Shown: positions 13,062-28,710, counted from the stretch's first letter. The stretch is DNA of 64,000 bases from an uncultured Candidatus Saccharibacteria bacterium (GCA_964574655.1 CAZNOH010000001.1:9852-73851); one strand, 5' to 3'. Numbers and translations: made by a program. The notes: generated by a model from the letters alone, not told the origin.

Positions 13062-14888
13062 TTAGATTATTTTGTCAATAATGCTTATTTTAAGATCGTC
13101 TAGATTTATTTTTAAATAAAATTTAATTAGAGTTCCGTTGGTTTTTAGATCTAGGTCTTTTTTAGTATATTTTTTAACAAGTTTTTTTAAAGGGCCGATG
13201 ATTTTTCCTTGCATATCATTTCTATTGGTGCTGTAAGAAGAGCGGGGCAATTTATTGCTGGTAATACTGGATTGTTGATTTTCCAATAATATTTTTAATA
13301 TTTCAATGGCTGTTTTTTGGGAAGGAAGTTGTTTGGAAGTCAGAGTTTTGCCTTTGATAAAAATTTTATGATTGATATTATCTAGGAGTAAATCAATTTC
13401 TTCTTTCTTAATTTTTTCTTCCAGCAGTAATTGAATTGATGTTTCAGAGGATGTAAAAGTTTTTTGAATAAGGGTATCTTTTTGGACATATTTTGAATAA
13501 ATTCCTTGCAACCAAGATTGTTCAATTTTTAATCCTTGTTCTTGAGAAGAATTATCCAGCCAAGAGGCAAAATCTAGATTAATATCTGGATTAAATTTGC
13601 TTTTTAATTCTGCAACAATCTGATCAATTTTGTTTCTCAATTGATAGGAATTAGCAACAAACAAAATATCGCCTCGGCGAACGGTGCCGGAGATCTTAGC
13701 AGCAGCTAAAATGTCTTCTTGGCCAGATTTTTTAGCTAGCAATCTAAAAGACGAAATTAAACGATCGCAATTTGGCGAGGAAAGATTAAGGAGGTTGAAG
13801 AGATACTGCTCTTTATTTAATAGTTCGACAAGATTTTTTAGCAAATCGGAAGAGAATCCTTGGCTAAAGATTTTTTTGAAAGCAATATAAGATTGAAAAG
13901 AATTGATGGGCAAGCAATCAGTATATTTATTCCAAAGCTCATTATTTTCTTGGTAAATTTTTCCGATCAGAGTTTTTGATTTGCCTAAATATTTTTTTAG
14001 ATCGATGAAGCAGTTTTGAGAATCCTTAATCAGTTTAGTTTTAAATTCTTTAATTTGAGCTTGTGAATCATGGACATCTCTGTTTTCTCCCGTATAAATT
14101 AGGCCATAGTCAAAAGGCCAAGACCAGCTGGTTAGATGATTGGTTATTTCATCTAATTTAATGATTTGATAAAAGCTGGAATCGATAGAATCAAGCTCTT
14201 CTAATCTAGGCTGATTTTGAGCTGGATTAGATTTGGTTTTTTTGCTGAAAAATAGAACAGGAACAGAAGATGGCAAAATGCTAGTAAGATTGCTGCCGCT
14301 AGCATTTGGAAAAAGAAAGCTTTCCCATTTCCAAATGGTTTTGAAAAGAAAATCAAATTTTAAATCTTTATTTTCTTTTAACTCAAGGCAATTTTTATTT
14401 TTCCAGCTAATAACGTCTTGTTGGTCTAATTTTTGGTTAAGAATCAAAGCACTAGTTAACAAGGCAACTAAAATAGCGCCACTGCCTAAGCCTCTTTCTA
14501 AAGGCAGTTCATTAAGAATATGAATATTAAAACCAATAGGCTTTTTAATTTGGCAAACATCTGTTAAAAATTTAAGGAAATATTTTTCAGTTTTTTCTGT
14601 TAAATACGGATCAAAATCATCCTTGTGGAAGGTTTGTGAATTAGGATCAAAATAAGCATAGCTGGTGATTCTAATGTTTTGTTTTTTATTGGGAATTAGG
14701 CCGACATAAGTTTTGAGAGGCAGATTTTGACGCAAAGTTAATCCGTCGTATTTGACAGCTTGCTCGCCAAACCAAGTGAAAGATCGCGGGGAAGAACAAA
14801 CTAAAGGGCATTGTGAAAAGAAATCTCGGTAGATTTTAGGGAATGTCTTTTGTAAAGACAATGAATTCATTGTAATGCGATTAGCCAT
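13062..14888 (-). CDS. GHMP-kinase family protein, unusually long (608 aa)
   Basis: GHMP motif I-like SPRSFTWFGEQAVKYDG (compare APGKVILFGEHAVVYG) and motif II PLERGLGSGAILVALL (PxGSGLGSSAA-like). The C-terminal ~350 aa match nothing recognisable. Confidence 0.55.
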   Translation of the reverse strand: MANRITMNSLSLQKTFPKIYRDFFSQCPLVCSSPRSFTWFGEQAVKYDGLTLRQNLPLKTYVGLIPNKKQNIRITSYAYFDPNSQTFHKDDFDPYLTEKTEKYFLKFLTDVCQIKKPIGFNIHILNELPLERGLGSGAILVALLTSALILNQKLDQQDVISWKNKNCLELKENKDLKFDFLFKTIWKWESFLFPNASGSNLTSILPSSVPVLFFSKKTKSNPAQNQPRLEELDSIDSSFYQIIKLDEITNHLTSWSWPFDYGLIYTGENRDVHDSQAQIKEFKTKLIKDSQNCFIDLKKYLGKSKTLIGKIYQENNELWNKYTDCLPINSFQSYIAFKKIFSQGFSSDLLKNLVELLNKEQYLFNLLNLSSPNCDRLISSFRLLAKKSGQEDILAAAKISGTVRRGDILFVANSYQLRNKIDQIVAELKSKFNPDINLDFASWLDNSSQEQGLKIEQSWLQGIYSKYVQKDTLIQKTFTSSETSIQLLLEEKIKKEEIDLLLDNINHKIFIKGKTLTSKQLPSQKTAIEILKILLENQQSSITSNKLPRSSYSTNRNDMQGKIIGPLKKLVKKYTKKDLDLKTNGTLIKFYLKINLDDLKISIIDKII

Positions 14889-14949
14889 AGGTTTGTTTAA
14901 GTTCGAGTTATTATAACAGAAAACTTATTTTTTTGCAAGGGATTTTGTC

Positions 14950-14978
14950 TTGACAATATTGTTTTTCTTAATTATAGT
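14950..14978 (+). promoter_or_regulatory. Putative promoter TTGACA-N17-TATAGT for the P-loop kinase-like gene
   Basis: Consensus -35, 17-nt spacer, then a leader containing GATTGTTCTTTGACAAAG and the SD. Confidence 0.5.
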
Positions 14979-15030
14979 AAAAAGAAATATTGATTGTTCT
15001 TTGACAAAGACAAAGAAAGGAGGGAAGGCA

Positions 15031-16080
15031 ATGGTAATGGAAAATCTGATGCCTGAACAAGAAAAAGTAAAATTGGAACCATTAACAGCTTGGATGATGC
15101 GGGAACGGCGAGATTTTATAGCCAAATCTTCTTTGGCAGTGAGAGCTTTAGTTGTAGAGTTTTTGGGAATGGGCGGTTGTTGGAAAAGCACTTTGATCAA
15201 TGAATTGGTAACAAAATATTTCTATCCATTTGGCATTGAATTAGTGACTTATGAAGAGCCTGATAAAAAGATTCCGGAAGTTTCTCGAGAAAGGGAGCCA
15301 AAGAAGTTTCGCATCGCTACATATAGAAGAACTTTGGCTAATCTTGATGAAGCTTTGGGTTCAGTAAAAGATTTGGCTTTGTTTGATCGCGGACTTTTTG
15401 ATTTTATTGTTTGGTTTAATTTGGATTTTACCGGAGGGCTGTTGAGCGAAGAAGAATGCAGAAGAGGCATTGCTGATATCATGTTGCGTGGTTACGGAAA
15501 GGTTGACTTGATGTTTGTACATACAGATCAGGTTGCTTCTTGCTTGAAAAGCACTCCATCAATGGGTTCAACATCTTTAATGGATTCTTTTTATCTGTCT
15601 CGGCGGAATGCAGGAGAAAGGCAAATTCGTTTCCAGCTTTATCAAAGAATGTACCAAGAAATGTTTTTGGGCGATGAAAAAAAGTTAGTCAAAAAGGCTG
15701 TCAAATTTATGTTTGACATGAATTTGGGAAAGTTTAATCGTAATTTTGCTGAAGTTTTTTGGCAGGCAGTAGTGCTGATTGATCTGTATCTGGTCTTTCA
15801 GACTTGGGAAAGCCTTTTCTTGGATCGTTTTGGAGATGAATTGAAGCAAAATGAGCGCACATCTGATTTGGAAAAAAGGATTATGAAGTTAGGCGAGGCC
15901 TTGTTTTCGTCGCTAGAGCATTTGCGGAGGATTAAAGTTTATGAATTGCATGCAGATATAGTAAAGATCTTGGATTCATACGCGCAGACAGAATTTGTTA
16001 TTGCTCGGTGCGATGGATGGCGGGTGGTGGTTTCGGATATTTTCGGGTCTCCGCCAAAGTTTCGTATCTTGGAAGGTTAA
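15031..16080 (+). CDS. P-loop NTPase, deoxynucleoside/nucleotide-kinase-like
   Basis: Walker A-like VVEFLGMGGCWKSTLINEL followed by a DRGLFD motif. The start is set at the ATG 8 nt after AAAGGAGGG; the in-frame upstream Met at 14950 lies inside the promoter/leader. Confidence 0.45.
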   Translation: MVMENLMPEQEKVKLEPLTAWMMRERRDFIAKSSLAVRALVVEFLGMGGCWKSTLINELVTKYFYPFGIELVTYEEPDKKIPEVSREREPKKFRIATYRRTLANLDEALGSVKDLALFDRGLFDFIVWFNLDFTGGLLSEEECRRGIADIMLRGYGKVDLMFVHTDQVASCLKSTPSMGSTSLMDSFYLSRRNAGERQIRFQLYQRMYQEMFLGDEKKLVKKAVKFMFDMNLGKFNRNFAEVFWQAVVLIDLYLVFQTWESLFLDRFGDELKQNERTSDLEKRIMKLGEALFSSLEHLRRIKVYELHADIVKILDSYAQTEFVIARCDGWRVVVSDIFGSPPKFRILEG

Positions 16081-16105
16081 CTCCTCTTTTTGGGGAGTTT
16101 TTTAT
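16079..16105 (+). terminator. Terminator after the kinase-like gene
   Basis: AACTCCTCTTTTTGGGGAGTT followed by a T-run. It is near-identical to the terminator at 18470. Confidence 0.65.
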
Positions 16106-16185
16106 TGACAAAAAGTAATTATTTTATTATTATTGAGTAAGTTCTTTTATTGAGCGAGTTCTTTCAAAACTAGGAGGAGGAAGAA

Positions 16186-16986
16186 ATGGATGAAAAAAAG
16201 ACATTTAAGGTTGTATTGCCTTCGGGTGATGTGAAGGTTTGGGAATTTGATATTAAAACAAAGCCAAGTGAAGGATTGAATCAAAAAGCAGGAATTGGGA
16301 ATTTATTTTTTAAGTTTGGGAAGATAGCAGGAAAGATAATAGGATTATTTTTCTATTGGTTGGGACATGGATTTGTGTTGATGTTTAAGAAAATTCTAAA
16401 GGCGATTTCTGTCTTTGCAATATTGATTAAAAAAGTAGTGAAAAGAATTTATAGAAAAATGGAATTTCATGGTTTTTTGAGAGTCTTTTTGAATTTCTTT
16501 GTTTTGTTTATTTTAGGATTGGTCAGTTTTTGTTATTGGAAATGGCTAGTTCCTTGGATTCTGTCTGTTGAAGAGATAGCTTATCGTCATTCTGCAACTG
16601 TGTATTTTATTTATTTAGGGGTGTGTTTGTTAGTGACACTTGTATGGCTTTTTAGAAATCTGAATTCAAAAAAACGTAGTGAAATTACAGTTTTATATCT
16701 TGCTTTGATCTTGATTGTAATAGCAATAGCAATGTCAGGTTTTTTTGCTTTTCTAGCAATATCATTTTCTATTTATATCTTTGAAAATGTTGTTTTATCA
16801 GCGATTGTTCATGGGATTTTGCTCCTTTTAGCGATGATATTTGGTATTAGAGAAGCTGAATGGTTAAAACCGGATAAAAAAGAACAACTTGTAATGATTG
16901 ATAGAAACTTAATTGGATTGAAGCGTTTTGCCTCAGATAGCTTAAGAAAATTGGAAAGAATTGAGAAAGAACGTTCAAAAAAATAA
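16186..16986 (+). CDS. Paralog-family protein P1 (conserved N-terminal module MDEKKTFKVVLPSGDVKVWEF, polytopic membrane protein)
   Basis: N-terminal module shared with six downstream paralogs, at least five hydrophobic helices, strong SD AGGAGGAGG, leader motif GTTCTTTCAAAA. Confidence 0.6.
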   Translation: MDEKKTFKVVLPSGDVKVWEFDIKTKPSEGLNQKAGIGNLFFKFGKIAGKIIGLFFYWLGHGFVLMFKKILKAISVFAILIKKVVKRIYRKMEFHGFLRVFLNFFVLFILGLVSFCYWKWLVPWILSVEEIAYRHSATVYFIYLGVCLLVTLVWLFRNLNSKKRSEITVLYLALILIVIAIAMSGFFAFLAISFSIYIFENVVLSAIVHGILLLLAMIFGIREAEWLKPDKKEQLVMIDRNLIGLKRFASDSLRKLERIEKERSKK

Positions 16987-16993
16987 ATTTTAG

Positions 16994-17021
16994 TCCCAAT
17001 AAACAAGATTGGGATTTTTTC
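16994..17021 (+). terminator. Terminator after P1
   Basis: TCCCAAT-AAACAAG-ATTGGGA followed by TTTTTT. Confidence 0.7.
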
Positions 17022-17093
17022 TTAATTTTTTCTCTAGTAAAAAGTTTTAATAGTTAGATAATGGAGTTGTTCTTTGACAAAAAGGAGGAGAAA

Positions 17094-18452
17094 ATGAGCA
17101 AGTCTGTAGTACCGATTATTTTGCAGTCCATGAGACATGAGCAGGATTTATTTAAATGGAATCCAGAATTTGATTTGAATGTAGTTAATTTTGATCAGTT
17201 TAACAGGCCTTACATTAGGCAAAGAGGCAATGATGATCATGAGACTAGTTTTGTTCAAGTTTTGGATGACAGTGGAAAATTGGTAAAGTATGGTTTTGTG
17301 AAGGCAATTAAGGAAAGTTTTTCTGATTTTACAAAGACACTTTTAGGAGCTGGATCGCAGATGGCAAGGATTGTGTTTGATAAAGATAACCATGCTTATA
17401 CTTTAGTACGAATTGCTTGTGGCTTGGGAACGAAAGAAGTCCAGATAGGTTTGTTGCTTTATTCAAGAGATCAATGCAGAACTTGGCAAGTTTATAAGTT
17501 GCCGATTAATGGTGTGGCAACGATGGAATATTTTACCGGACATAATCAGATTAATGGACCGCCAATGATTGCTGTTTTTGAGAAAACAAAGGTGAAGGTG
17601 GCAAAATGGGCGACAATTCATAAATTATATGTTGTGGTGGTTAAAAAAACTAAGACAGGTCTTGAGTTTGAGCAGATAATAAAAGTGACAGAGAAATCTT
17701 TTGGTCTTTCAGCGCATTCTGGTGGGGCATCAGTCTTGGCTAGTTTAGATAGTAAAACGTATGTTATTTGGACAGAAGTAACTAATAACCCTAGTCATTT
17801 GGGATCGCCGACATTTGTAGCGACTTTTGATCATAGTTCCAAGAGATTAATCAATAAATCATTTGTTGGTTGTACATCAAAGCCGAAAAATGATATGCAC
17901 AATACTCCAGGGATTTGTTTGGATAGCCGAGGATTTTTAAATGTAATGCTTGGAGCGCACGCTGGTAGTTTTTTTTATGGCAGGAGCCAGATTTCTAACT
18001 CAGTAGAAAGAGGATGGACTTTGTTGCATGAAACATATTCGTCTGTCGGTCAAACTTATATTGCTTTGGTTTGTGATCAGGTAGATAATTTACATCTTGT
18101 TTTTCGGGATCATAGATATGGCAAAAGAGATTTTCACGCTAGCCATTTTCATTATTGCGCGCTTTGTTATCAAAGAATGTTAAAAGACGGATATTGGGAA
18201 GTTTCAAGACTATTGGTTGTGCCGCCATTGCCAGATTACAGCATCTATTATCATCAGTTGTCGATTGATCGATTAGGAAGATTGTTTTTATCTTACAATT
18301 ACTATAGCGAAAGTGAACCATACAAGAGTTGGATTGAGAAAAATGGCAGATATAATAAGAAATTTCGCGCTATGCTTTTTAGTGGAGATGGCGGTATGAC
18401 TTGGCAAATGGCGACAACGAGAATTTTTTTGGATGGATTTGTGAAGACTTGA
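17094..18452 (+). CDS. Hypothetical protein with two BNR/Asp-box-like motifs (possible beta-propeller)
   Basis: SRDQCRTW and SGDGGMTW match SxDxGxTW. SD AAAGGAGGAG and leader motif TTGTTCTTTGACAAA. The upstream in-frame Met at 17061 is in the leader. Confidence 0.4.
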   Translation: MSKSVVPIILQSMRHEQDLFKWNPEFDLNVVNFDQFNRPYIRQRGNDDHETSFVQVLDDSGKLVKYGFVKAIKESFSDFTKTLLGAGSQMARIVFDKDNHAYTLVRIACGLGTKEVQIGLLLYSRDQCRTWQVYKLPINGVATMEYFTGHNQINGPPMIAVFEKTKVKVAKWATIHKLYVVVVKKTKTGLEFEQIIKVTEKSFGLSAHSGGASVLASLDSKTYVIWTEVTNNPSHLGSPTFVATFDHSSKRLINKSFVGCTSKPKNDMHNTPGICLDSRGFLNVMLGAHAGSFFYGRSQISNSVERGWTLLHETYSSVGQTYIALVCDQVDNLHLVFRDHRYGKRDFHASHFHYCALCYQRMLKDGYWEVSRLLVVPPLPDYSIYYHQLSIDRLGRLFLSYNYYSESEPYKSWIEKNGRYNKKFRAMLFSGDGGMTWQMATTRIFLDGFVKT

Positions 18453-18469
18453 ACTTTGTTAGCTAGGTT

Positions 18470-18497
18470 AACTCTTCTTTTGGGGAGTTTTTTTATT
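18470..18497 (+). terminator. Terminator after the 17094 gene
   Basis: AACTCTTCTTTTGGGGAGTT followed by a T-run; a duplicate of the 16079 terminator. Confidence 0.65.
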
Positions 18498-18627
18498 TTT
18501 CCTAGTTTTTTCAATTTTTTTCTTTTTGATAAGAGATAATAATGAAAGTGGAAAGTAAAAGATAGGACTTTACAACTAGGACATGATCCGCTTTCGCTAA
18601 AGCTACGGCGGACAAAGGAGAACAGCC

Positions 18628-19653
18628 ATGAAGAATATCGGATCAAAATTGTTTGTGCTACTGGGGATGCTTTTGATCGTTATTGGAGCAATTTCGCTTT
18701 TGGTAGCAATTCTTTACGGCAAGTATTTTGCTTTTTTGGCCTTGTATCCTGATTTGGTAGATATGGTGGCGGATTTTGGAGTTAATATTTATCTGTCAAG
18801 AATTGTAGCAGTCTTTGTAACGATTGGATTGTGGGTAGCGATTTTCAAATTCTTGTTGAGCTTCAGCCAGAAAAAGAGAGAAATTGGTTTTTTCATTTTG
18901 TTAGGATTGTTTGTTCTGCATACCTTTTGTTTGTATATTATTAATTTGAATCGGTCTGTTTCTGTTGATGGGCAGGTGGGATTTTGCACGCGAGACCAAA
19001 TTACTGGACGAGTGGAATATTTCGATCGGTCTTTGTATGATGCTTCTGGCCAGAAAGCGGAAAAATGCACAAAAGATGAAATTCGGCAGCTCCGTGTTCA
19101 GGATAAATATCCCAATAATGAGATTCCTTTGATAGCGATTGGCAACTGGTTTGATGAGAATGGTAGTTCGTTGGTTTATTACTATAAAGATAGTCAAGGC
19201 GTACTTCATTTTCGTTATATGGGAGGTTTTGCTCAAACAGGAGAGATGTGGCAACAGGTAACAAAGGAAGTGCTTGGAAAAATCAGTCCAAATTTGCAGT
19301 CGCAGTTTCAGCAAACGAAAGGTGATGTTGTATTGAGGCATAATTTTGATGATCGACCGAATTTAAAGACTCTGTATAGAAATTCTTTGGCGGGATATCT
19401 GATTTTCTTTGTCTTTCTGAATATTGTTTTTTGGGTGGTGTTTTTGAAGATAGCAAGTCTTTCTTTTGGTACGAGGGCTAGTTTAATAGGTTTGGCTGGT
19501 TTGGTTAATCTGGTTGGTTTTTGCGGTATTGATTATGCATCAAGTTGGTCAGGATTGGCAGTTGCGGTTTTAATGATCAGCTTGGCATCGCCGTTTGTAA
19601 TTTCTTTCGTCAAAGGTTTCTGGACAGGAATGAGAGAGAGCAGGCCCGTCTAA
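18628..19653 (+). CDS. Membrane protein, unknown function
   Basis: N- and C-terminal TM clusters flank a ~170 aa hydrophilic domain. SD AAAGGAGAACAGCC precedes the ATG. Confidence 0.55.
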   Translation: MKNIGSKLFVLLGMLLIVIGAISLLVAILYGKYFAFLALYPDLVDMVADFGVNIYLSRIVAVFVTIGLWVAIFKFLLSFSQKKREIGFFILLGLFVLHTFCLYIINLNRSVSVDGQVGFCTRDQITGRVEYFDRSLYDASGQKAEKCTKDEIRQLRVQDKYPNNEIPLIAIGNWFDENGSSLVYYYKDSQGVLHFRYMGGFAQTGEMWQQVTKEVLGKISPNLQSQFQQTKGDVVLRHNFDDRPNLKTLYRNSLAGYLIFFVFLNIVFWVVFLKIASLSFGTRASLIGLAGLVNLVGFCGIDYASSWSGLAVAVLMISLASPFVISFVKGFWTGMRESRPV

Positions 19654-19696
19654 TTAAGGGCGGGAGGTCAACCAACTGGAAGAGGAGGAGACGGTC

Positions 19697-19927
19697 ATGA
19701 CAGGATACACAATCGCAATGTTGATTACTGGCGGGATTTTGCTGATTGTCGGTGTTTTGATTGTAACAGGCGTTTGGAATCCATTTTCTAAGAAGGATGC
19801 AGATGGCAAGAAGGAGCCGTTGTCCCGAAAGGAAAAAGGGATGGTGGCAGGCTTCTTTGCAATGCTGATTCTGGCAATCGTGAATTTCTTCTACGCCATT
19901 TTTCCGATGCAGAAGCGAAAGTCCTAA
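19697..19927 (+). CDS. Small 2-TM protein (paralog of 28448..28696)
   Basis: 76 aa with two hydrophobic helices, shares the W-x-PF...K-x-PL-x-KEK pattern with the 28448 ORF, SD GAGGAGGAG, followed by terminator hairpin CCCGA/TCGGG. Confidence 0.55.
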   Translation: MTGYTIAMLITGGILLIVGVLIVTGVWNPFSKKDADGKKEPLSRKEKGMVAGFFAMLILAIVNFFYAIFPMQKRKS

Positions 19928-19945
19928 AATATCATTCGTTCATTC

Positions 19946-19969
19946 ATCCCGATTTATTCGGGATTTTTA
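19946..19969 (+). terminator. Terminator after the small 2-TM gene
   Basis: CCCGA-TTTAT-TCGGG followed by ATTTTTAT. Confidence 0.55.
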
Positions 19970-20047
19970 TTTAATTGACAATAAGATTCTTTTATACTAT
20001 GTTGGAGAGAATGTTCTTTTCAAAATAGAAGAAAGGAGGAAAAAAGG

Positions 20048-20794
20048 ATGTCTAAGGGAGAGAAATTTAAAGTAATTGATCCATCGGGGGAATTGAAGGA
20101 ATGGTCATTTAAAGAAAAGCCAAAAAGTGCTGAACCAATGGTTTGTGAGGAAAAGAGAATAGAAACAAAGCCAAGTGTATTTTTCGAACTTGGAAAAATG
20201 TTTGGAAAAAAAATGAAGTTCTTGAAGTTATACGGAGTATGGATTATTTTTTGCATTTTGGGTATTCTCGCTGTTTTTTTTATTTGGGTATTGGCAATTT
20301 TTGTGCATGGAAGCGATTTTCTTTCTCAGACCATTCCAATACAGTCTAGGTCGCAACAGAAGCAAAGTATTGTCACACAAAATACCAAAGTGGTACAAAG
20401 ATCATGGCCACTGGGAAGCAAAGCAGAAGTATTGGTAGAAGATGTGGAGTGGAATTATTCAAGAAATGAGTTTTACTGTAATTTACATGAGATTAAGGGA
20501 TGGAGTGTTGTTTTTGATCGGGTAGAGACGCGGATCTGGAAATTACAGAAAAGTGATGAATCACCACAAGTTTTTAAACAAAGAGAGCCTCATTATTGGA
20601 CCCGAAACGTGCATCTTAATATTAGGCCTTTTCAACGTTATTGTGGAAAAGATAGACGGTCAGATCGTTGCGTGATAACTTTGGAAAACTATCGAGCATG
20701 GCTACAAGAAATAGAATGGATTGAGGTGAAACTTTTAGGTAAAGATGCACGAGGAAATGAAGTGAGTGTGGTTTTAGAGACTTATGATCATTGA
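20048..20794 (+). CDS. Paralog-family protein P2 (N-module + 1 TM + C-terminal domain shared with P6)
   Basis: MSKGEKFKVIDPSGELKEWSF, one TM. The C-terminal ~115 aa are alignable with the C-terminus of P6 (RIWKLQ..ESPQ.FKQR.P..WTR.VH...LENYRAWLQ..EWIE.KL.GKD.RGNE). Confidence 0.6.
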   Translation: MSKGEKFKVIDPSGELKEWSFKEKPKSAEPMVCEEKRIETKPSVFFELGKMFGKKMKFLKLYGVWIIFCILGILAVFFIWVLAIFVHGSDFLSQTIPIQSRSQQKQSIVTQNTKVVQRSWPLGSKAEVLVEDVEWNYSRNEFYCNLHEIKGWSVVFDRVETRIWKLQKSDESPQVFKQREPHYWTRNVHLNIRPFQRYCGKDRRSDRCVITLENYRAWLQEIEWIEVKLLGKDARGNEVSVVLETYDH

Positions 20795-20952
20795 TATTTA
20801 TACAGTTTTTTGAAGCTGTATTTTTTTTCTTAACTTTTTCAATTTTCTTTTTAAAGATTTGTTCTAATATTAGGTTAGATGATAGTTGACTAATTTTATT
20901 GTTCATGCTATCCTACAGTGATTGTTCTTTGACAAATCAAGGAGGAAGGAAA
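20795..20952 (+). repeat. Array cassette copy A (terminator + CTTAACTTTTTCAATTTTC box + promoter + GTTCTTTGACAAA leader + SD)
   Basis: About 85-95% identical to cassettes B-E over ~130 nt, by direct reading. Confidence 0.8.
20886..20914 (+). promoter_or_regulatory. Cassette promoter (TTGACT-N17-TATCCT) of P3
   Basis: Part of the duplicated cassette; same geometry in all five array copies. Confidence 0.45.
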
Positions 20953-21558
20953 ATGCCAGAAGAAAAGAAAACTTTTCAAGTGATTGCGCCGGATGGAGAG
21001 CTGAAAGAATGGGAAATTGAGAATTCAAAAGAAATAGGATTGGTGGAAAACAAGTTTAAAGAGAGACGAGCGATTTCAGTGAATGTTTTTTTTAGATGTG
21101 GAAGATGGGCAGGAAAAATAATATTGGGTTGGTTTTCTTTTTTCGTTTCAAAATTAGAACTTTTATTAAAACAAAAAGCCGAAAAGAAATTATTGAAAGT
21201 AAAAGAGAAAGTTGAAAGGGAAGAGAGTAAACGGTTAAAAATAAAGAGAATACATGAAGAAAGAATGCATGAAGAAGCAAAGAGAAAAGAATTAATTTTG
21301 CAGAGTATTGATGTTTTGGACAATGCGGGATATCACGAAAAAGCTGCAAGGATTGCTAAGGAGACAGGAAGTTATGAGAGAGCTATTGATATTTTAGATC
21401 GTACTGGACACCATGAAAAAGCTGCAGAGATTGCTGAGGAGGTAGGAAATTATGGGAAAGCTATTGATATTTTGGTACGATCGGGACATCACGGAAAAGC
21501 AGGGAGAATTGGTGAAAGACTTGCTAGAAGATCTAATAATTCTGTAAAAAAAGTTTAA
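20953..21558 (+). CDS. Paralog-family protein P3 (N-module + tandem 19-aa helical repeats)
   Basis: MPEEKKTFQVIAPDGELKEWEI, then three tandem repeats of G[YH]HEKAA.IA.E.G.Y..AIDIL.R.GHH. The start is at the ATG after AAGGAGGAAGGAAA. Confidence 0.6.
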   Translation: MPEEKKTFQVIAPDGELKEWEIENSKEIGLVENKFKERRAISVNVFFRCGRWAGKIILGWFSFFVSKLELLLKQKAEKKLLKVKEKVEREESKRLKIKRIHEERMHEEAKRKELILQSIDVLDNAGYHEKAARIAKETGSYERAIDILDRTGHHEKAAEIAEEVGNYGKAIDILVRSGHHGKAGRIGERLARRSNNSVKKV

Positions 21559-21746
21559 GATTTAAATAAAGATACTATTTTATTAATTTGTACCTTTTCG
21601 GAGTTTTCTCCGATTTTTTTTATTAACTTTTTCAATTCTCTTTTTAATAATTTGTATTAAAATTAGATTAGATGGATAGTTGACCAATCTTATTGTTCAT
21701 GCTATTCTTCAGTGATTGTTCTTTGACAAATCAAGGAGGAAGGAAA
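21559..21746 (+). repeat. Array cassette copy B
   Basis: Hairpin TCGGAG/CTCCGA, the TTAACTTTTTCAATTCTC box, promoter, leader and SD. Confidence 0.8.
21680..21708 (+). promoter_or_regulatory. Cassette promoter (TTGACC-N17-TATTCT) of P4
   Basis: Duplicated cassette copy. Confidence 0.45.
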
Positions 21747-22838
21747 ATGGCAGAAGAAAAGAAAACTTTTCAAGTGATTACGCCGGATGGGGAATTGAAA
21801 GATTGGGAATTAGATGCGCCTAAACTAAAAAAGGCGGATGATAAGCTTAATAAAAAAAATCAGAGTTTGAGATTGGCTTTTGAATGGATGAAGAAAGCAG
21901 GAATGGCAACAGGAAAACATTATAGATTAATCCTGATTGTTGCGAGCTGTGTTTATTTGGCGGTATGGATTTGGCAAGAAAGATCTTTTCGTCTTGAAGA
22001 ACTTCATCGTCAAGAAGTAGTAGCTATGCAGTTACAGCAAAAAGAGAAAGCTAGAATGAGAGTAGGAGAAGAAAAAAAGGAAGAGAAGATTGCAACCACA
22101 AAGGCACAAAAAACTGACGAAAAAACACAAGAGGTTGAAGAAAAAGTTGAAGTTGCAGAACCTGAAAAAGAAAAAGAATGCTATGGTAAAGGGAACAAAT
22201 TGGTGAATGGGGTATGCGTACTAGAACATGTTATAAGAATGCATGAACAGTACGAGCACGAATTACAAAAAGAAAGACAAGCAGACAAAGAGAGACAACG
22301 TGGAGATGAGTTACGCAGGAAAGAAGTGTTTCACAGACAAGAGGAAGCTTGGTTGGTAGAAGAAGCAATGCGAAAGTTAGAAGTGGAGCGGAAAGAGGAG
22401 CACGAAGCTATTTTGGGACAACGACATGAGTATTTGAAAGAGCAACGAAGATTAGAAAGAGAGAGCAATCCTCATGTATATAGATCAAAATATCCAGTAG
22501 TTTTAAAGCCAGATTTATTAATAAAAGGAGCCTCTTCTAGCGTGATAGACGTTCCGGATGACTTTATAATCAGAGAAGTCATTATTGAACTAGATGTGAA
22601 GGTGGATAAACAGTATCTTCCATCTCAAAGTCATTTTGATTGTAATCTCTTGAGATCAGGCAAATTAATTAGTTTAAAAGGTTGTTGTATAGGTGGATGT
22701 GTTTTTAGCGAATTTATTCGTGAATCGTCAAGAGGGGAATGGAAAATATTGAAGAAAAAAATGCCAGGACGATTTCTTAGGTGGAAGATAACAATTGTCC
22801 CGGCAATTGCAGAAGATGGAACAGTGTTAAAACCTTAG
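21747..22838 (+). CDS. Paralog-family protein P4 (N-module + TM + charged coiled-coil + P-domain-like C-terminus)
   Basis: First ~90 aa identical to P5. E/K/R/Q-rich middle section. C-terminal ~95 aa alignable with P5 (VIDVPDDF.IR...CNL.RSGK...GEWKI...ITI.PA.AEDGTVLKP). Confidence 0.6.
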   Translation: MAEEKKTFQVITPDGELKDWELDAPKLKKADDKLNKKNQSLRLAFEWMKKAGMATGKHYRLILIVASCVYLAVWIWQERSFRLEELHRQEVVAMQLQQKEKARMRVGEEKKEEKIATTKAQKTDEKTQEVEEKVEVAEPEKEKECYGKGNKLVNGVCVLEHVIRMHEQYEHELQKERQADKERQRGDELRRKEVFHRQEEAWLVEEAMRKLEVERKEEHEAILGQRHEYLKEQRRLERESNPHVYRSKYPVVLKPDLLIKGASSSVIDVPDDFIIREVIIELDVKVDKQYLPSQSHFDCNLLRSGKLISLKGCCIGGCVFSEFIRESSRGEWKILKKKMPGRFLRWKITIVPAIAEDGTVLKP

Positions 22839-23002
22839 ATCTTTTTTGTTAAAACGCGCATTATTGACGCGTTTTTTTCTTAACTTTTTCAATTTTGTTT
22901 TTGAAGATTTGTTCTAACATTAGGTTAGATGATAGTTGACCAATCTTATTGTTCATGCTATTCTTCAGTGATTGTTCTTTGACAAATCAAGGAGGAAGGA
23001 AA
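22839..23002 (+). repeat. Array cassette copy C
   Basis: Hairpin AACGCG/CGCGTT; the remainder is near-identical to copy B and continues into the identical first ~270 nt of P4/P5. Confidence 0.8.
22936..22964 (+). promoter_or_regulatory. Cassette promoter (TTGACC-N17-TATTCT) of P5
   Basis: Duplicated cassette copy, identical to the P4 copy. Confidence 0.45.
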
Positions 23003-23959
23003 ATGGCAGAAGAAAAGAAAACTTTTCAAGTGATTACGCCGGATGGGGAATTGAAAGATTGGGAATTAGATGCGCCTAAACTAAAAAAGGCGGATGATAA
23101 GCTTAATAAAAAAAATCAGAGTTTGAGATTGGCTTTTGAATGGATGAAGAAAGCAGGAATGGCAACAGGAAAACATTATAGATTAATCCTGATTGTTGCG
23201 AGCTGTGTTTATTTGGCGGTATGGATTTGGCAAGAAAGATCTTTTCGTCTTGAAGAACTTCATCGTCAGCAGGTAGTAGCTAAGCAGTTACTGCAGGTGG
23301 AAGAAGGAAAAAGAGAGAGAATAAGAATACGAACAGATGAAGAAAGAAAACGTCGTGATGAAGTAGAGAGACAACAGTTGGAACGGCAAAGGTTGGAAGA
23401 ACAGCTGTGGGTAGAAGAGGAGCATAGCAGGCAGGCAAAATTACGTCAGACGAAAGATGATAGGAGACGTCGTGATGAAGAGGAAAGACGGCTGATAATG
23501 TTGCGTCGACAAGAGGAAATCAGATTGGCACGAGAGGCAAAGCAAAGAGAGAGGGAAGAACGTGAACCGCATACATATAAAACGAGTCAGCCAATGGTAT
23601 TAAAAGCAGGCGCATCACAAGAAGCTTATTTTAAATTTGCAGAGAGTGTAATTGATGTTCCAGATGATTTTTATATTAGAGGGATTAGGATTTGGTTAAA
23701 GTTGGATGTTAAGAGCTTTTATAGAGATGAATTTTTAAAACCTCGTTATGACGGTTTAGAATGTAATCTCGTGAGATCTGGCAAGGTAACTTTTTTAAGA
23801 GATTGTTGTCTTGATGGATGTCTTTTTGATGAATTTAATAGTGAATCGTCAAAAGGAGAATGGAAGATAAAGGTAAGAGCAGTAGAAGGATGGATTAATT
23901 CGTGGCAGATAACAATTACGCCAGCAGTTGCAGAAGATGGGACAGTATTAAAACCATAG
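23003..23959 (+). CDS. Paralog-family protein P5 (mosaic paralog of P4)
   Basis: Identical to P4 over the promoter, leader and first ~90 codons, diverges into an R/E-rich coiled-coil, then rejoins P4 in the C-terminal beta-domain. Confidence 0.6.
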   Translation: MAEEKKTFQVITPDGELKDWELDAPKLKKADDKLNKKNQSLRLAFEWMKKAGMATGKHYRLILIVASCVYLAVWIWQERSFRLEELHRQQVVAKQLLQVEEGKRERIRIRTDEERKRRDEVERQQLERQRLEEQLWVEEEHSRQAKLRQTKDDRRRRDEEERRLIMLRRQEEIRLAREAKQREREEREPHTYKTSQPMVLKAGASQEAYFKFAESVIDVPDDFYIRGIRIWLKLDVKSFYRDEFLKPRYDGLECNLVRSGKVTFLRDCCLDGCLFDEFNSESSKGEWKIKVRAVEGWINSWQITITPAVAEDGTVLKP

Positions 23960-24125
23960 ATTGTTTTTTGTTAAAACGCGCATGTGTCGCGTTTTTTTTT
24001 TAACTTTTTCAGTTTTCTTTTTAATAATTTGCATTAAAATCAGATTAGACGGATAGTTGACCAATTTTATTGTTCATGCTATCCTGTAGTGATTGTTCTT
24101 TAAACAAAGAAAAGAGGAGGGAAGT
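23960..24125 (+). repeat. Array cassette copy D
   Basis: Same terminator type as copy C, box TTAACTTTTTCAGTTTTC. The leader variant ends GTTCTTTAAACAAAGAAAAGAGGAGGG. Confidence 0.75.
24057..24085 (+). promoter_or_regulatory. Cassette promoter (TTGACC-N17-TATCCT) of P6
   Basis: Duplicated cassette copy. Confidence 0.45.
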
Positions 24126-25271
24126 ATGCCTACAGAAAAGATATTTAGGGTGATTACGCCGGCAGGAGAGAGAAAAGAGTGGGTGATAAAAAATGAAGCT
24201 TGCGAAGTTCAACCTAAATGTTTAGTGCAAGAACAAAAGAAAGATAGATTTGATGGATTTTTAGATGGAGTGAGCAAGAAATTGGGTGAAGCGGGAAAGG
24301 AATTAGCTAAAATAACAGTTTCTTTTATTTCATGGTTGAGAACGAATATTAGAGTGATCTTGCTTGCTATGTTAGTCTTAGCGGCTTGTATAGCGCTATG
24401 GCGCTTAGTAGTTTTTGTAGGCATTCTATACGAGGCATTTGTTGATTGGTTGACGAAAAATAAATCTTCAGATGGAGCATGGTGGATGACTTATTTTCTT
24501 GGCATTGGCATATGGTTGATGATTGCTGTTGTTTATTTTCTGTTGATCTATGTCAAAAGAGAACACAGAATTTGGGGAGTTCGTTATTATGATTTTGCTG
24601 ACTTTTTTTGGTTCTTGGCATTAGGAGTATTTTTAGCATTTGTTGGCGGGTTAATTTCAGCGCAGGTCGCTTCTTGGCTTGCTTCGATTGTACCTTGGTA
24701 CTTGTCAATAATTATTCCATTAGCGGTTTCTTTGTTAGGAATTGGATTGATTAAAAACGGAATTTATCAATGCAATTTTGATGAAAAAGTTTGGTGGATA
24801 GTTATTCTAGCTGTGATATTGTTAGTCTCTGGAGTTAAAGCAGGCTGTGAATTAAGAAAAAAATGGCAGACTGAAAGAGAAGAATCTTTACGACAGCAAG
24901 CAGTTGAGCGTTTGAAATGCAAGGCAAGAATTTTGGTAGAACATTCAAGTTGGGGTTGGTCAAATAATGAATTTCATTTTAGTTTACAGGACATGGGAAA
25001 TTGTGGAGTTGTTTTGAATAAAGCGGAAGTCAGGATTTGGAAATTGCAAGAAGATAATGAATCTCCGCAATCTTTTAAGCAACGCCAGCCGTTTTTTTGG
25101 ACAAGAGATGTTCATTTTGAGGCTGACTCATTTCAATGCATGGAGGGTAGTATAAAATTGGAAAATTATCGGGCTTGGTTGCAAGATAAAGAATGGATTG
25201 AAATTAAACTATTTGGTAAAGATGAGCGTGGAAATGAGTTAATTGTACTTTTGGAAGCATATGATGAATAA
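24126..25271 (+). CDS. Paralog-family protein P6 (N-module + polytopic membrane region + C-terminal domain shared with P2)
   Basis: MPTEKIFRVITPAGERKEWVI, about six hydrophobic helices, C-terminal domain homologous to the P2 C-terminus. Confidence 0.6.
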   Translation: MPTEKIFRVITPAGERKEWVIKNEACEVQPKCLVQEQKKDRFDGFLDGVSKKLGEAGKELAKITVSFISWLRTNIRVILLAMLVLAACIALWRLVVFVGILYEAFVDWLTKNKSSDGAWWMTYFLGIGIWLMIAVVYFLLIYVKREHRIWGVRYYDFADFFWFLALGVFLAFVGGLISAQVASWLASIVPWYLSIIIPLAVSLLGIGLIKNGIYQCNFDEKVWWIVILAVILLVSGVKAGCELRKKWQTEREESLRQQAVERLKCKARILVEHSSWGWSNNEFHFSLQDMGNCGVVLNKAEVRIWKLQEDNESPQSFKQRQPFFWTRDVHFEADSFQCMEGSIKLENYRAWLQDKEWIEIKLFGKDERGNELIVLLEAYDE

Positions 25272-25465
25272 TATTATTACAGCTCTTTAAAGCTGTATTT
25301 TTTTCTTAACTTTTTCAATTTTCTTTTTTATAATTCGTATTAAAATCAGATTAGATGAATAGTTGATCAATTTTATTGTTCATGCTATTCTATAGTGATT
25401 GTTCTTTGACAAATCAATCCGCCTTCATCTCTGCGGAGACTACGGTGGACAGGGGAGGAAGGAAA
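25272..25465 (+). repeat. Array cassette copy E (with a ~40-nt GC-rich leader insertion)
   Basis: Hairpin ACAGCT/AGCTGT, box, promoter TTGATC-N17-TATTCT. The leader GTTCTTTGACAAATCAA is interrupted by TCCGCCTTCATCTCTGCGGAGACTACGGTGGACAGG before GGGAGGAAGGAAA. Confidence 0.75.
25363..25391 (+). promoter_or_regulatory. Cassette promoter (TTGATC-N17-TATTCT) of P7
   Basis: Duplicated cassette copy. Confidence 0.4.
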
Positions 25466-26269
25466 ATGGCAGAAGAAAAGAGGACTTTCAAGGTTGTTGC
25501 GCCGGATGGAGAGTTGAAGGAATGGGAGTTTGGAGCTTCGGAGGCAAAGAAAAGTATCTCTTTAGAATCATGTCAGTCAACTAAAACAGATGAGATTATC
25601 AAACATTCTTCAAATCAGATTCGAGCAGAAGCGTATATAGTTGTTTTTAAGATCGGTAAATGGTTGGGAAATGTGATTAAACATTTTGTTTTGCAACTTA
25701 GGATATTTTGGCAAAAAATGACAGCTAAGAAATATTCTACTTATGATGATTTTCAGAAAGGCAAGTGTCTTATGGTAGTAGAGGAAGACTTGATTATTAG
25801 TGAAAAGGAACTTAGATATGAACAATCATATGGAAGATCGTATTTGAAATTAATTATGGTAATTTCATGTCTAAGGGAAATAAATGTTGTTTTCACAAAA
25901 GGCAAAGTTGTAGGCGAGAGTGAATATGGTCTTGCAGAATTTGATATTACTGGTTGTATTAGGAATTTGGAAATTTTTGTTTTTGTAGACAGAAAAGAAA
26001 TAGTTATCGATTTGAGTTGTTTAATCAGTCTGATTGAAAAATGTGAAGTGTTAAATATAGAACTTTTGGGGAGCGAAACAGATTTGTTTTCAGGGCAAAA
26101 AAGATTGAGAAAAATTCGTTTTGAATTTGCTAAATTAGGAGGTAAATTAGTTAAATATCATTGTACTTTTTGTGATTCTAGTGCTTTCTCTTCTGATTTG
26201 CTTTTTTATTCCCAATTTATTTGGGATTTTTTATTTTTCTTAATTTTTTCAGTATTTTTCTTATTATAA
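25466..26269 (+). CDS. Paralog-family protein P7 (N-module + distinct body + C-terminal hydrophobic tail)
   Basis: MAEEKRTFKVVAPDGELKEWEF. Its leader carries a ~40-nt GC-rich insertion relative to the other cassettes. The C-terminus FLFFLIFSVFFLL is hydrophobic. Confidence 0.55.
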   Translation: MAEEKRTFKVVAPDGELKEWEFGASEAKKSISLESCQSTKTDEIIKHSSNQIRAEAYIVVFKIGKWLGNVIKHFVLQLRIFWQKMTAKKYSTYDDFQKGKCLMVVEEDLIISEKELRYEQSYGRSYLKLIMVISCLREINVVFTKGKVVGESEYGLAEFDITGCIRNLEIFVFVDRKEIVIDLSCLISLIEKCEVLNIELLGSETDLFSGQKRLRKIRFEFAKLGGKLVKYHCTFCDSSAFSSDLLFYSQFIWDFLFFLIFSVFFLL

Positions 26270-26325
26270 AAAAGCAAAAATGAAGCTAGCAGATAGTTCT
26301 TTCACAACAGGCAAAGGAGGACAAA

Positions 26326-27285
26326 ATGTGGGCGAAAATCGGGTTTTTTTTGCTGGCAGTCTTGGCAATTTATATCGGCATTGCGCTTTTAGTAAAGTTT
26401 TTTCCGCAGATTTTTCGGCAAAAAAATCTTGATACTCTGCGGAGGGCAAGCGGAAATATGTTTGTTCCTCAAGGCGCTTTTGGAAGAACTCTTGGATTAA
26501 CATTGGGAATTCCGGTGGCGATAATGGGAGTAACAGCAGTAGTAGAATTTGAACAAAAAAGATTGCTAGGTTTGAAAATTAGAGAACTGGAAAATAAGAT
26601 AGTTGCTAAATTAAGCAAAGGAATTATTTATTTTATTTCGCTTAGAGTTTTTTTGGATGAGAAGTTGAGTTTGTGGAAAAGACAGATTGCAATTGGTGAA
26701 TTTGAGCATCTTAGTTTGTTGGGCGAGGTTGATGATTTGGCGAGAAAATTAAAAGATTTTTGGCCAGTGATTTCAGAAATCGAAGTTTTGCTGGCAGATA
26801 ATTTTCAATTGTTAGAAAAAGTGAAGCAAATGCAGTTGCCTTCGGAAATTAATGGCGAGGTTGGGAAATTGGAGCAGGCTTTGAGGGAATACCAGAAAAT
26901 AACGATAGATTTTGACAGTTTGGCGCCTTTTGTTTCTTTGGGCGATGATTTGAAACAGATCAATACTTTATTAAAGCAAATTATGATGATGGATTCTGAA
27001 TTGCAGAATAAGATTGAGCCTAAAAAAGATTATTATATCATTTTAGGACTTAAAAAAAATGCTTCACAAGAAGAGATAAAGAAAGCTTATCGAGCTTTGG
27101 CGATAAAATTTCATCCTGATAAAAAAAGATCCCAATTGGAAAAAATTGACGATGAGGATATGAAAGCCAGAATTGAAGAAGAATATAATCGGATGCTGGC
27201 GGATATTAATGAAGCTTATGGAATTTTATTAGATGTCCAAAAGAGAGAAGAATATGACCGAACTTTTTCGTCAAGTACTTTTTAG
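26326..27285 (+). CDS. DjlA-like membrane-anchored J-domain co-chaperone
   Basis: Two N-terminal TM helices, a coiled-coil middle, and a C-terminal J domain with HPD (DYYIILGLKKNASQEEIKKAYRALAIKFHPDKK). Confidence 0.7.
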   Translation: MWAKIGFFLLAVLAIYIGIALLVKFFPQIFRQKNLDTLRRASGNMFVPQGAFGRTLGLTLGIPVAIMGVTAVVEFEQKRLLGLKIRELENKIVAKLSKGIIYFISLRVFLDEKLSLWKRQIAIGEFEHLSLLGEVDDLARKLKDFWPVISEIEVLLADNFQLLEKVKQMQLPSEINGEVGKLEQALREYQKITIDFDSLAPFVSLGDDLKQINTLLKQIMMMDSELQNKIEPKKDYYIILGLKKNASQEEIKKAYRALAIKFHPDKKRSQLEKIDDEDMKARIEEEYNRMLADINEAYGILLDVQKREEYDRTFSSSTF

Positions 27286-27364
27286 TATTTGACATTTTTC
27301 TTTTGTTTTGTTTGAACAAGATAAAAGAAAGATAGTTAGCTCTTTAAAAAAAGGAGGGAGAGAC

Positions 27365-28192
27365 ATGGCAAACATAGTCAAGAGGCCAGAATCAGTAACA
27401 GCGCTTTTGACTGATATTCGGAAATTTACAGGCGGTCAATTTTCATCAGTTAGAAAAGAAGATCAGCAGGCAAGTTTTGGCAAAAAACTGCAAGTTGTTT
27501 TTCTGTTTGATACAACTGGAAGCATGTATCCGTATTATGAGCTTGGCAAGAAGCAAATTAGCCAGATAGTTTCGAAGGTCGTAGAAAAACATCGGCAGGC
27601 GCAGTTTTGCTATTTGGCTTATAAGAATCATGGCGATGAAACAGAATTTTTTGACGGCGAGAATCCTTTCTTTGCCTCTTCTTTTACCAGTGATCCAGAA
27701 CAAATCAAGTTGGAATTAGAGAAGGTGAAGAATGGAGGCGGAGGCGATGGTTTGACAGCTTTGGAATGCGTTTTTCATTATCTTAATGTAAATGTCAAAT
27801 GGCAAGATTCGGCAACAAAAATTGTGGTTTTAATTGGCGATATGCCGCCTCATGGAGTGATTGATTCGGTAGCAAAATGTCCAAAAAAGCATAATTATCA
27901 AGATGAGATTGCGCAAATGAAGGCGAAAGGGATAAAGGTTTATTCAGTATTCTGTTTTGAAGAGGGTAATTTGGTTTCATCTCGGATAAAGCAGGTTAAA
28001 ATGTTTTTTAGGGAAACAGCTTCAAGAACTAATGGGCGCTATCTGGAATTGGCAGAGATTGGAGAAATTGTTGATTTGTTGACAGGAATTTGCATGAAGG
28101 AAATTGGTCATTTGGATGAATTTGTCAAGGATTTGGAAAGATTGCAGCAGCTTTCCGATGGGAAGAGAAGACTGTTGCTGGCACTGAAGTAA
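27365..28192 (+). CDS. von Willebrand factor type A (vWA) domain protein
   Basis: MIDAS-like VVFLFDTTGSM with an alpha/beta alternation typical of vWA. Start is the ATG after AAAAAGGAGGGAGAGAC. Confidence 0.6.
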   Translation: MANIVKRPESVTALLTDIRKFTGGQFSSVRKEDQQASFGKKLQVVFLFDTTGSMYPYYELGKKQISQIVSKVVEKHRQAQFCYLAYKNHGDETEFFDGENPFFASSFTSDPEQIKLELEKVKNGGGGDGLTALECVFHYLNVNVKWQDSATKIVVLIGDMPPHGVIDSVAKCPKKHNYQDEIAQMKAKGIKVYSVFCFEEGNLVSSRIKQVKMFFRETASRTNGRYLELAEIGEIVDLLTGICMKEIGHLDEFVKDLERLQQLSDGKRRLLLALK

Positions 28193-28202
28193 GGAGGAAG
28201 CC

Positions 28203-28696: not shown

Positions 28697-28710
28697 ACTT
28701 TTGTACTTTA

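Follow-up and report, generated by a model that had tools for sequence, protein, structure and literature searches.

We describe a family of seven paralogous genes, P1 to P7, that lie between positions 16186 and 26269 of a 64-kb stretch of chromosome from an uncultured Candidatus Saccharibacteria bacterium (GCA_964574655.1 CAZNOH010000001.1:9852-73851). The whole stretch of 64,000 nucleotides (nt) is called the window below, and positions are counted from its first letter. A reading made from the DNA sequence alone (the sequence-only reading) had proposed seven genes with a common N-terminal module, and all seven open reading frames (ORFs) are present on the plus strand at the starts it gave (Table 1). 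When the six frames of the window were searched with the pattern F.[VI]..P.G..K.W, exactly seven matches were obtained, each at the N-terminus of one of the seven proteins, and a profile of the N-termini, run locally, scored P1 to P7 at E-values of 1e-20 to 1e-26. The core motif of the family is F-x-V-x-x-P-x-G-x-x-K-x-W, set in a module of ~22 residues (the N-module) with the hairpin consensus K-x-F-x-V-I-x-P-x-G-[ED]-x-K-x-W-x-F. A polar linker of ~15-45 residues connects it to a second shared motif, [FV]F..G[KR]..G[KN] (FFxxGKxxGK, the GK motif), which lies just ahead of the hydrophobic region and in most members continues into a hydrophobic helix. The N-termini are charged (MAEEKKTF...), and their first 40 residues contain neither a hydrophobic h-region nor a lipobox. 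The longer opening string M-[AP]-EEKKTF, ascribed earlier to all members, fits P3, P4, P5 and P7; P1 (MDEKKTFKVVLPSGDVKVWEF), P2 (MSKGEKFKVIDPSGELKEWSF) and P6 (MPTEKIFRVITPAGERKEWVI) keep the core without the full string.

The N-module also lies outside described families, as had been suspected, with no match in Pfam, NCBIfam, PADLOC, PHROG or PDB families. The full P1 to P7 proteins matched nothing in Pfam on the N-terminus at E <= 0.1, and 11 N-terminal fragments searched against Pfam and NCBIfam at E <= 10 gave scattered single matches only. Even at the latter threshold, no match to the N-module came from the signal-motif families KxYKxGKxW, YSIRK and ESPR in these two databases. A profile search of the PDB with the N-module returned propeller matches only, with scores summed over repeats. 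The hairpin is a new module in a lineage-specific tandem family of membrane proteins.

Downstream of the module the proteins differ, and comparison of the P2/P6-type and P4/P5-type domains by hhalign found no relation between them, in agreement with the earlier view that a conserved 5' expression unit and N-module are joined to unrelated payloads. Transmembrane (TM) helices had been expected after the N-module in most copies. By a hydropathy scan (window 19, mean threshold 1.6) this holds for P1, P2 and P4 to P6 and fails for the remaining two: P3 has no segment at the threshold and P7 has none after its GK motif. The helical repeats of P3, first described as 19 residues long, have a period of 78 nt in Tandem Repeats Finder (TRF), that is 26 amino acids (aa) in 2.5 copies at 21306-21500; TPR-like matches to this protein are weak. 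The deposited gene call for P4 begins further upstream (379 aa), and an exact copy of P6 occurs on a Logan contig (L090).

P7 requires separate comment. What had been taken for a hydrophobic C-terminal payload is the in-frame translation of a terminator hairpin (26210-26226), its T-run and a T-rich box, so that the region 26190-26269 encodes an F/L-rich tail (...FIWDFLFFLIFSVFFLL, up to the stop) and the stop codon lies ~35 nt past the terminator stem. P7 also has a weaker -35 element and a 37-nt insertion in its leader. Because of the terminator read-through, the weaker -35 and the leader insertion, P7 is probably a decaying or 3'-truncated copy. A diverged P2-type domain in P7 was considered and dropped, as BLASTP of P7 against P2 aligned the N-module only. 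If termination were efficient, the P7 mRNA would be without a stop codon.

Table 1. Features of the locus, with positions counted from the first nucleotide of the window.
Feature	Position	Strand	Description
P1	16186..16986	+	N-module, GK motif, polytopic body (about 5-6 TM), basic C-terminus; from ORF, motif and hydropathy
P2	20048..20794	+	N-module, GK motif, one strong TM (66-84), C-terminal beta-sandwich
P3	20953..21558	+	N-module, GK motif, charged helix, 26-aa helical repeats x2.5
P4	21747..22838	+	N-module, one TM, long charged helical stalk, Cys-containing beta head
P5	23003..23959	+	P4 paralogue: first 88 codons identical, stalk diverged, head 56% identical
P6	24126..25271	+	N-module, about 5 TM, C-terminal beta domain as in P2 (54% identity)
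P7	25466..26269	+	N-module, GK motif, beta-rich body, last ~20 codons through terminator and T-rich box
Cassette before P3	20821..20940	+	T-rich box, promoter-like site, leader; from repeat family, alignment and promoter scan
Cassette before P4 (reference copy)	21615..21734	+	From repeat family, alignment and promoter scan
Cassette before P5	22871..22990	+	From repeat family, alignment and promoter scan
Cassette before P6	23992..24111	+	From repeat family, alignment and promoter scan
Cassette before P7	25298..25417	+	From repeat family, alignment and promoter scan
300-nt block	21675..21974	+	100% identical to 22931-23230; promoter, leader, first 76 codons of P4/P5
Leader element GTTCTTTGACAA before AAA28-like gene	14996..15007	+	From search at 0-1 mismatch
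GHMP-kinase-like gene and AAA28-like NTPase gene	13062..16080	.	608-aa GHMP-kinase-like (-) and AAA28-like (15031-16080, +); conserved cluster partners directly upstream of P1
Mem341 and small 2-TM protein	18628..19927	+	Mem341 with about 6 TM and large Cys-containing loop; conserved cluster partners, from hydropathy and synteny
DnaJ-TM	26326..27285	+	Two N-terminal TM helices, helical region, C-terminal J domain; Pfam DnaJ 1.2e-17
vWA	27365..28192	+	Cytoplasmic; DTTGS MIDAS-like motif; Pfam VWA; heads vWA-orf84-2TM unit
orf84	28203-28457	+	84-aa acidic protein; second gene of overlapping vWA-orf84-2TM unit
2-TM protein	28448-28696	+	Last gene of vWA-orf84-2TM unit

Expression cassettes and growth of the array

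P3 to P7 each stand behind a cassette of ~120-130 nt, and the five copies form a 120-nt repeat family with 71-92% identity to the reference copy; together with the alignment, this upholds the claim of a near-identical cassette on the five downstream genes. From 5' to 3' it consists of a terminator hairpin, a T-rich box, TTGACC-N17-TATTCT with an upstream TG, the leader GTTCTTTGACAA and a strong Shine-Dalgarno (SD) sequence. A promoter scan placed terminator-like hairpins and TTGAC[CT]-N17-TAT[CT]CT with the upstream TG at the expected places for P3 to P6; the promoter-like site of P7 (TTGATC) was visible in the alignment only. A further repeat family of 79 nt comprises the SD and first 22 codons of P3, P4, P5 and P7 (85-100% identity). 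Every copy in the array has its own promoter-like site, SD and terminator, and, to judge from these signals, all copies are transcribed independently. The T-rich CTTAACTTTTTCAATTTTC box, at 21623-21651, 24000-24028 and 25306-25334, itself resembles a promoter (TTAACT-N17-[AT]ATAAT) and would be a second one ahead of TTGACC. Similar boxes, at 18489-18546 and 26227-26284, precede Mem341 and DnaJ-TM, which suggests a conserved upstream promoter or UP-like element.

The leader, treated at first as private to the family, is common to its neighbors. At 0-1 mismatch, the 12-mer GTTCTTTGACAA occurs eight times in the window, all within 14996-28830 and none elsewhere in the 64 kb; besides the copy in Table 1 the positions are 17069, 20924, 21718, 22974, 25401, 26296 and 28819. 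These copies precede P3, P4, P5 and P7 as well as the AAA28-like, BNR_4, DnaJ-TM and orf250 genes, and variants are found at 16158 (P1), ~20013 (P2), ~24095 (P6) and ~27340 (vWA). In about 12 transcription units of the cluster, a spacing of 0-15 nt separates GTTCTTTGACAA(A) from the SD that follows it, and in P7 the element sits 37 nt further upstream owing to the leader insertion. The element may be an operator or 5' untranslated region (5'-UTR) element of a regulon. A leader hairpin that sequesters the SD was rejected, since the predicted structures, at -3 to -10 kcal/mol, are weak and fare no better than shuffled sequences (z -1.9 to +0.7). Two side observations concern the leaders. A GC-rich mini-hairpin, TCCGCYTTC-N-CTACGGYGGACA, lies directly ahead of the SD of Mem341 (18587-18614) and of P7 (25418-25451), where it constitutes the 37-nt insertion; there are two copies in the window against none expected by chance, and the stem is maintained via wobble changes. 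The leader region of P1 (16130-16164) contains a 17-nt tandem duplication (TTATTGAGCAAGTTCTT x2.1), so that the GTTCTT portion of the leader element is present twice.

Among P3, P4, P5 and P7, identity runs from the cassette to codon ~22 and ends there. P4 and P5 do not differ over their first 88 codons (synonymous divergence dS = 0 for codons 1-60), and beyond that point their divergence is saturated; the identical 300-nt block at their 5' ends probably arose by recent gene conversion or duplication. In their heads, the proportion of nonsynonymous differences (pN) about equals that of synonymous differences (pS; 0.32-0.38). P1, P2 and P6, on the other hand, have DNA at only 68-76% identity, with pS near saturation and pN of 0.2-0.3, and yet retain the peptide motif. 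For the 17-codon core of the N-module, most pairs have pS of 0.6-0.9, near saturation, and pN of 0.1-0.3; since pS is near saturation and pN low, the constraint acts on the peptide rather than on the DNA. Judged by these substitution patterns, the N-module is under purifying selection. The array has grown by tandem duplication of whole transcription units, and its 5' ends have been homogenized. It may have started from one ancestral P2-like gene, with the region downstream of the N-module replaced in the duplicates and gene conversion acting on the 5' ends.

The possibility of an assembly artefact had been raised. Contigs that Logan assembled from the short reads of SRR13723393/4 match the window at 100% identity, cross the junction from P5 through the cassette to P6 (23239-25327) and end exactly at repeated cassette sequence (20851, 25327). 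Since these independent read sets reproduce both the sequence and the junction, the copies are real.

Relatives and the surrounding gene cluster

A profile of the N-terminus from hairpin through GK motif was searched with HMMER against all 1.84 billion cluster representatives. It matched the seven proteins of the window (E 1e-15 to 5e-21) and, beyond them, a single true relative, P0008 (E 1.3e-4), together with one FG-GAP-type repeat protein in which five 'TVLPSGEVKAWxN' blades sum to the score. P0008 is 29% identical to P1 across 226 aa and comes from the metagenome-assembled genome (MAG) CSMAG_2461 (GCA_030611905.1), where it belongs to a tandem series of four or more P1-like genes on a 2.7-kb contig (L084). 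A separate promoter is present for at least three of these genes, and the identical GTTCTTTGACAA leader, with an SD, for at least three, the 12-mer lying ahead of three array genes. Synteny with the window is seen on a second contig from this MAG (L005), which carries Mem359, a small 2-TM protein, one N-module gene, DnaJ-TM, vWA, S6 and the single-stranded DNA-binding protein (SSB). Its N-module gene (2439-3347; 302 aa, MSKSKQRFRVVSPSGEAREWTF…) is the positional orthologue of P2, with the N-module and C-terminal strands as in P2 and P6 and a leader related to GTTCTTTGACAA; T-rich boxes there precede DnaJ-TM and a 75-aa ORF. At this syntenic site one P2-like gene stands against six in the window, and the P1-like array of L084 expanded independently of the array in the window.

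A third lineage (Logan SRR27730040-43; L087/L088) has a diverged member of 151 aa (MEVKVISPEGKLINLKI…KIFRTGKRFGRHL) in the order GHMP-like (-), AAA28-like, N-module gene, DnaJ-TM, vWA, small ORF, Mem334, 2-TM. An N-module gene thus lies immediately upstream of DnaJ-TM and then vWA in all three lineages (window, L005, L087), and both the N-module and the GK motif persist even in genomes with an SSB of only 55% identity. Three lineages are the extent of the family so far, which makes it very rare. When GTDB genomes, JGI metagenomes and IMG/VR were scanned for the pattern P[DSA]G[ED][LRV]K[EDV]W, no relatives emerged, a result that excludes only close copies because the scans also missed the true members on contigs L005 and L084 of a GTDB genome. 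A word-indexed search with the N-terminal profile found none either; its negatives are discounted because a P6 query returned P6 alone and missed P2, which is present in the collection. A literature search for comparable families in the Candidate Phyla Radiation (CPR) found nothing relevant.

The window is bacterial chromosome with rpoB, rpoC, ftsK, rodZ, recA, efp and ychF upstream of the locus, S6, SSB, phosphoglucomutase, TrpRS and RNase J downstream, and UvrA, UvrC and GroEL further on. GC content is ~34%, GC skew is strongly positive throughout, and composition at the locus is the same as in the flanks. SSB relatives place the host, a tiny-celled bacterium, in the Patescibacteria/CPR, the best match (80% identity) being in MAG JAQVVF01. 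In this closest genome (L004 5900-9900; JAQVVF010000003.1) the ychF-S6 interval is ~1.6 kb and holds only an IS200-like Y1 transposase gene and an orf250 homologue, which has a leader related to GTTCTTTGACAA; that site lacks ~17 kb of the window (12-29.7 kb).

Genes for GHMP-like, AAA28-like, BNR_4, Mem341, two 2-TM, DnaJ-TM, vWA, orf84 and DA1-like proteins are interleaved with P1 to P7. The two small 2-TM paralogues (19697-19927, 28448-28696) have W-x-P-F…G-x-K-x-P-L-x-x-K-E-K in common. Against defence and phage families (PADLOC, PHROGs) the cluster genes gave J-domain matches only. In the collection searched, 64 homologues of the vWA protein were found, of which the four with an informative source name all come from Patescibacteria. 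The unit vWA-orf84-2TM (27365-28696) is conserved in Patescibacteria contigs L005, L086, L087, L091 and L093, and the series DnaJ-TM, vWA and small ORF, often with DA1-like, Mem341-like and 2-TM genes, recurs in contigs of Falkowbacteria and other Patescibacteria in which no N-module gene was detectable. DnaJ-TM resembles DjlA-type J-proteins in having N-terminal TM helices and a C-terminal J domain, a layout that in DjlA brings DnaK to the membrane. It differs in that it matches in the J domain only, the DjlA match being partial (E 9e-7) and far below the cut-off.

Some further observations concern the cluster. In one contig (L091 11490-19231; ENA ERZ27250210), whose vWA protein is identical to one named Falkowbacteria by NCBI, four Mem341-like paralogues stand beside DnaJ-TM, vWA and DA1-like genes. 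These expanded paralogues are not N-module proteins; which component of the cluster has multiplied varies from lineage to lineage. A DA1-like (LIM-peptidase-type) protein is encoded at 12155-12931 (-), and DA1-like genes recur beside vWA in L091 and L093. A DUF5680 protein is encoded at 34895-35380 (-).

Interpretation of the shared N-terminus

AlphaFold2 models of P2 and P5, which rest on shallow alignments and have a mean predicted local distance difference test (pLDDT) score of about 65, both contain a strand-turn-strand hairpin at residues ~7-21, followed by a long helix that includes the GK motif and TM segment. The N-module is thus predicted to be a beta-hairpin in two independent models. 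In P2 the hairpin strands are at 7-10 and 16-19, the helix spans 42-95 and the beta domain 127-246, for which Foldseek returned Ig-like sandwiches at E 0.01-0.1. In P5 a single helix spans 59-186 and the beta domain 210-307. P4 and P5 may end in a lectin-like jelly roll raised on ~130 residues of stalk, and for the C-terminal ~100 residues a galactose-binding-like or P-domain jelly roll is a candidate fold. When the head of P4/P5, the AAA28-like protein and the vWA protein were searched against PDB sequences, nothing useful emerged. The charged N-terminus of the family lacks signal-peptide features, and K/R residues cluster ahead of the first TM (in P2, four before and none after), so that this end of the proteins is probably cytoplasmic. 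The beta domains of P2, P4, P5 and P6 would then lie outside the cell. A manual reading that keeps K/R-rich loops inside gives P6 five TM helices with the C-terminus out, on which its placement here depends, and suggests for P1 six TM helices and two cytoplasmic termini. For P3 a peripheral, cytoplasmic location is likely. The notion that all payloads are displayed outside finds no support in the hydropathy results for P3 and P7.

Our tentative preference, plausible although well short of assured, is for an N-in family of membrane-anchored proteins in which the cytoplasmic hairpin serves as a shared docking or sorting handle, and which has grown by tandem duplication and gene conversion of 5' ends. 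The N-terminal unit would consist of the cytoplasmic hairpin, the polar linker, a basic amphipathic FFxxGKxxGK segment and the first membrane helix. Through it, different membrane proteins might be docked or sorted by a common partner encoded in the same conserved cluster. One candidate partner is the membrane J-protein DnaJ-TM, which would recruit DnaK; another is the cytoplasmic vWA protein, whose metal site could, hypothetically, bind the invariant Gly-[Glu/Asp] tip of the hairpin. P2 and P6 would then place an Ig-like sandwich outside the membrane, and P4 and P5 a jelly-roll head on a stalk, with all copies probably transcribed co-ordinately with the cluster neighbors via the common leader.

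Several points weigh against this proposal. No experiment or co-evolution signal ties the N-module to DnaJ-TM or vWA, and no N-module gene was detectable in the vWA-orf84-2TM clusters of L086, L091, L093 and L095; since vWA clusters exist without an N-module gene, a partner role of DnaJ-TM or vWA is not obligatory. Topology is drawn from hydropathy and the positive-inside rule only, and the window-19 scan finds six segments in P6 and five in P1, which would put both C-termini on the sides opposite to those of the manual reading. P3 and P7 do not fit a display model, and the dN/dS estimates come from few codons.

Among the alternatives, the sequence-only reading had likened the locus to surface-variation systems. 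With such a system the cell would express a single copy or a few at any moment and so present a changing surface. Mycoplasma vsp (M. bovis), vlp (M. hyorhinis) and vsa (M. pulmonis) are variable surface lipoprotein loci, and the logic of our locus appears closest to theirs: a tandem multigene family in a reduced-genome, wall-poor bacterium, with a conserved 5' non-coding region and an N-terminal anchoring part of ~25-30 residues joined to divergent, partly repetitive C-termini, and with recombination that keeps the 5' ends alike. The near-identical 5' cassettes and N-termini, the variable C-termini, the similar pN and pS of the P4/P5 head and a conversion block that could move payloads between expression contexts would all suit such a system. 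Furthermore, CPR bacteria are episymbionts (PMC12206443), a lifestyle that would profit from surface variation. However, each copy has its own promoter-like site, SD and terminator, and neither the lipobox nor the switch of the mycoplasma loci is evident. The anchor is a charged hairpin, linker and TM instead of a lipoprotein signal peptide, and some members are polytopic or without a TM. There is no poly-A promoter tract, homopolymer or short tandem repeat in the promoter spacers, no invertible element, and no recombinase, invertase or diversity-generating retroelement (DGR) reverse transcriptase within the 64 kb. Apart from the 78-nt repeat of P3, TRF returned nothing but a few low-scoring rows of two copies within coding regions, the inverted repeats found are A/T-rich chance matches, the two independent read sets are identical in sequence, and P1, P3 and P7 are not obviously surface-exposed. 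We therefore consider a variation system quite unlikely. An array of polymorphic toxins or effectors, or a mobile, phage or defence island, is highly improbable. It would account for a conserved N-terminus with a variable C-terminus and for the 12-29.7 kb block missing from the closest genome, where an IS200-like transposase gene is found. Yet no toxin, immunity, secretion, integrase or phage families were present (PADLOC gave nothing and PHROGs only the J domain), IMG/VR held no relatives, composition equals that of the flanks, and the genes of the block belong to a cluster that is also conserved elsewhere on the chromosomes of other Patescibacteria. Small ORFs do not occur between the array genes, the intergenic regions of which are cassettes, and no marker gene of a defence island, prophage or DGR was found.

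Two other explanations concern the N-module itself. It could be the conserved n-region of an extended signal peptide or anchor that steers Sec/YidC targeting, timing or placement and is perhaps cleaved. Motif-bearing extended signal peptides, such as ESPR of autotransporters, YSIRK/GS and KxYKxGKxW, are thought to guide targeting rather than catalysis. By analogy, the N-module seems closest to their n-regions, as a short motif rich in K, aromatic residues, G and W, followed by basic residues and a hydrophobic helix, on otherwise unrelated surface proteins. P2, moreover, has a possible signal-peptidase site after its hydrophobic stretch, between VHG and S, so that a cleavable form would be possible for P2 only. 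What makes this account unlikely is the absence of any Pfam or NCBIfam match even at E <= 10, the 15-45 polar residues between motif and helix, anchor-like hydrophobic stretches of 19-30 residues, polytopic carriers (P1, P6), carriers with no TM after the module (P3, P7) and a CPR host. Alternatively, the common N-terminus might be functionless and simply carried along when duplication or conversion copies promoter, leader and first codons as one unit. The nucleotide identity of P3, P4, P5 and P7, which stops at codon ~22, and the active homogenization seen in the P4/P5 block are as this would predict. It is nevertheless unlikely, since P1, P2 and P6 retain the peptide motif despite diverged DNA, the N-module and GK motif persist in two other lineages, and the GK motif is conserved at the protein level outside the homogenized DNA. 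Membership in the beta-propeller repeat proteins was rejected. The PQQ-like/FG-GAP blade hairpin resembles the N-module at the motif level only, as a strand-turn-strand of the form h-x-P-x-G-x-h-K-x-W-x-h (AINPNGKLKWKFE repeats in 8prj, TVLPSGEVKAWRN repeats in P0009), a likeness that accords with the predicted hairpin. In contrast to propellers, each protein here has one hairpin rather than a 4-stranded blade or tandem blades of 40-60 residues, and single repeats score a non-significant 5-7 bits, the totals coming only from sums over 4-8 repeats.

The handle reading also has a more far-reaching form, which we regard as improbable: the hairpin and GK motif would be an undescribed sorting or docking signal, read by a dedicated membrane machinery of one branch of Patescibacteria (J-protein with Hsp70, vWA bound to the acidic hairpin tip, Mem341/2-TM) that installs or organizes changeable, host-directed surface receptors. 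To our knowledge, little is known of how CPR bacteria build their surface and recognize hosts beyond type IV pili. If such a signal is real, it would represent a new targeting route; otherwise, the N-module proteins are a rare orphan family of local interest. In either case, the locus offers a small example of how a reduced genome may make membrane proteins, by copying a transcription unit, keeping the N-terminal handle and swapping the rest. It also points to a conserved Patescibacteria cluster of J-domain membrane protein, vWA, Mem341, 2-TM, GHMP-like and AAA28-like genes, and this J-protein/vWA cluster poses a more general question than the N-module family itself.

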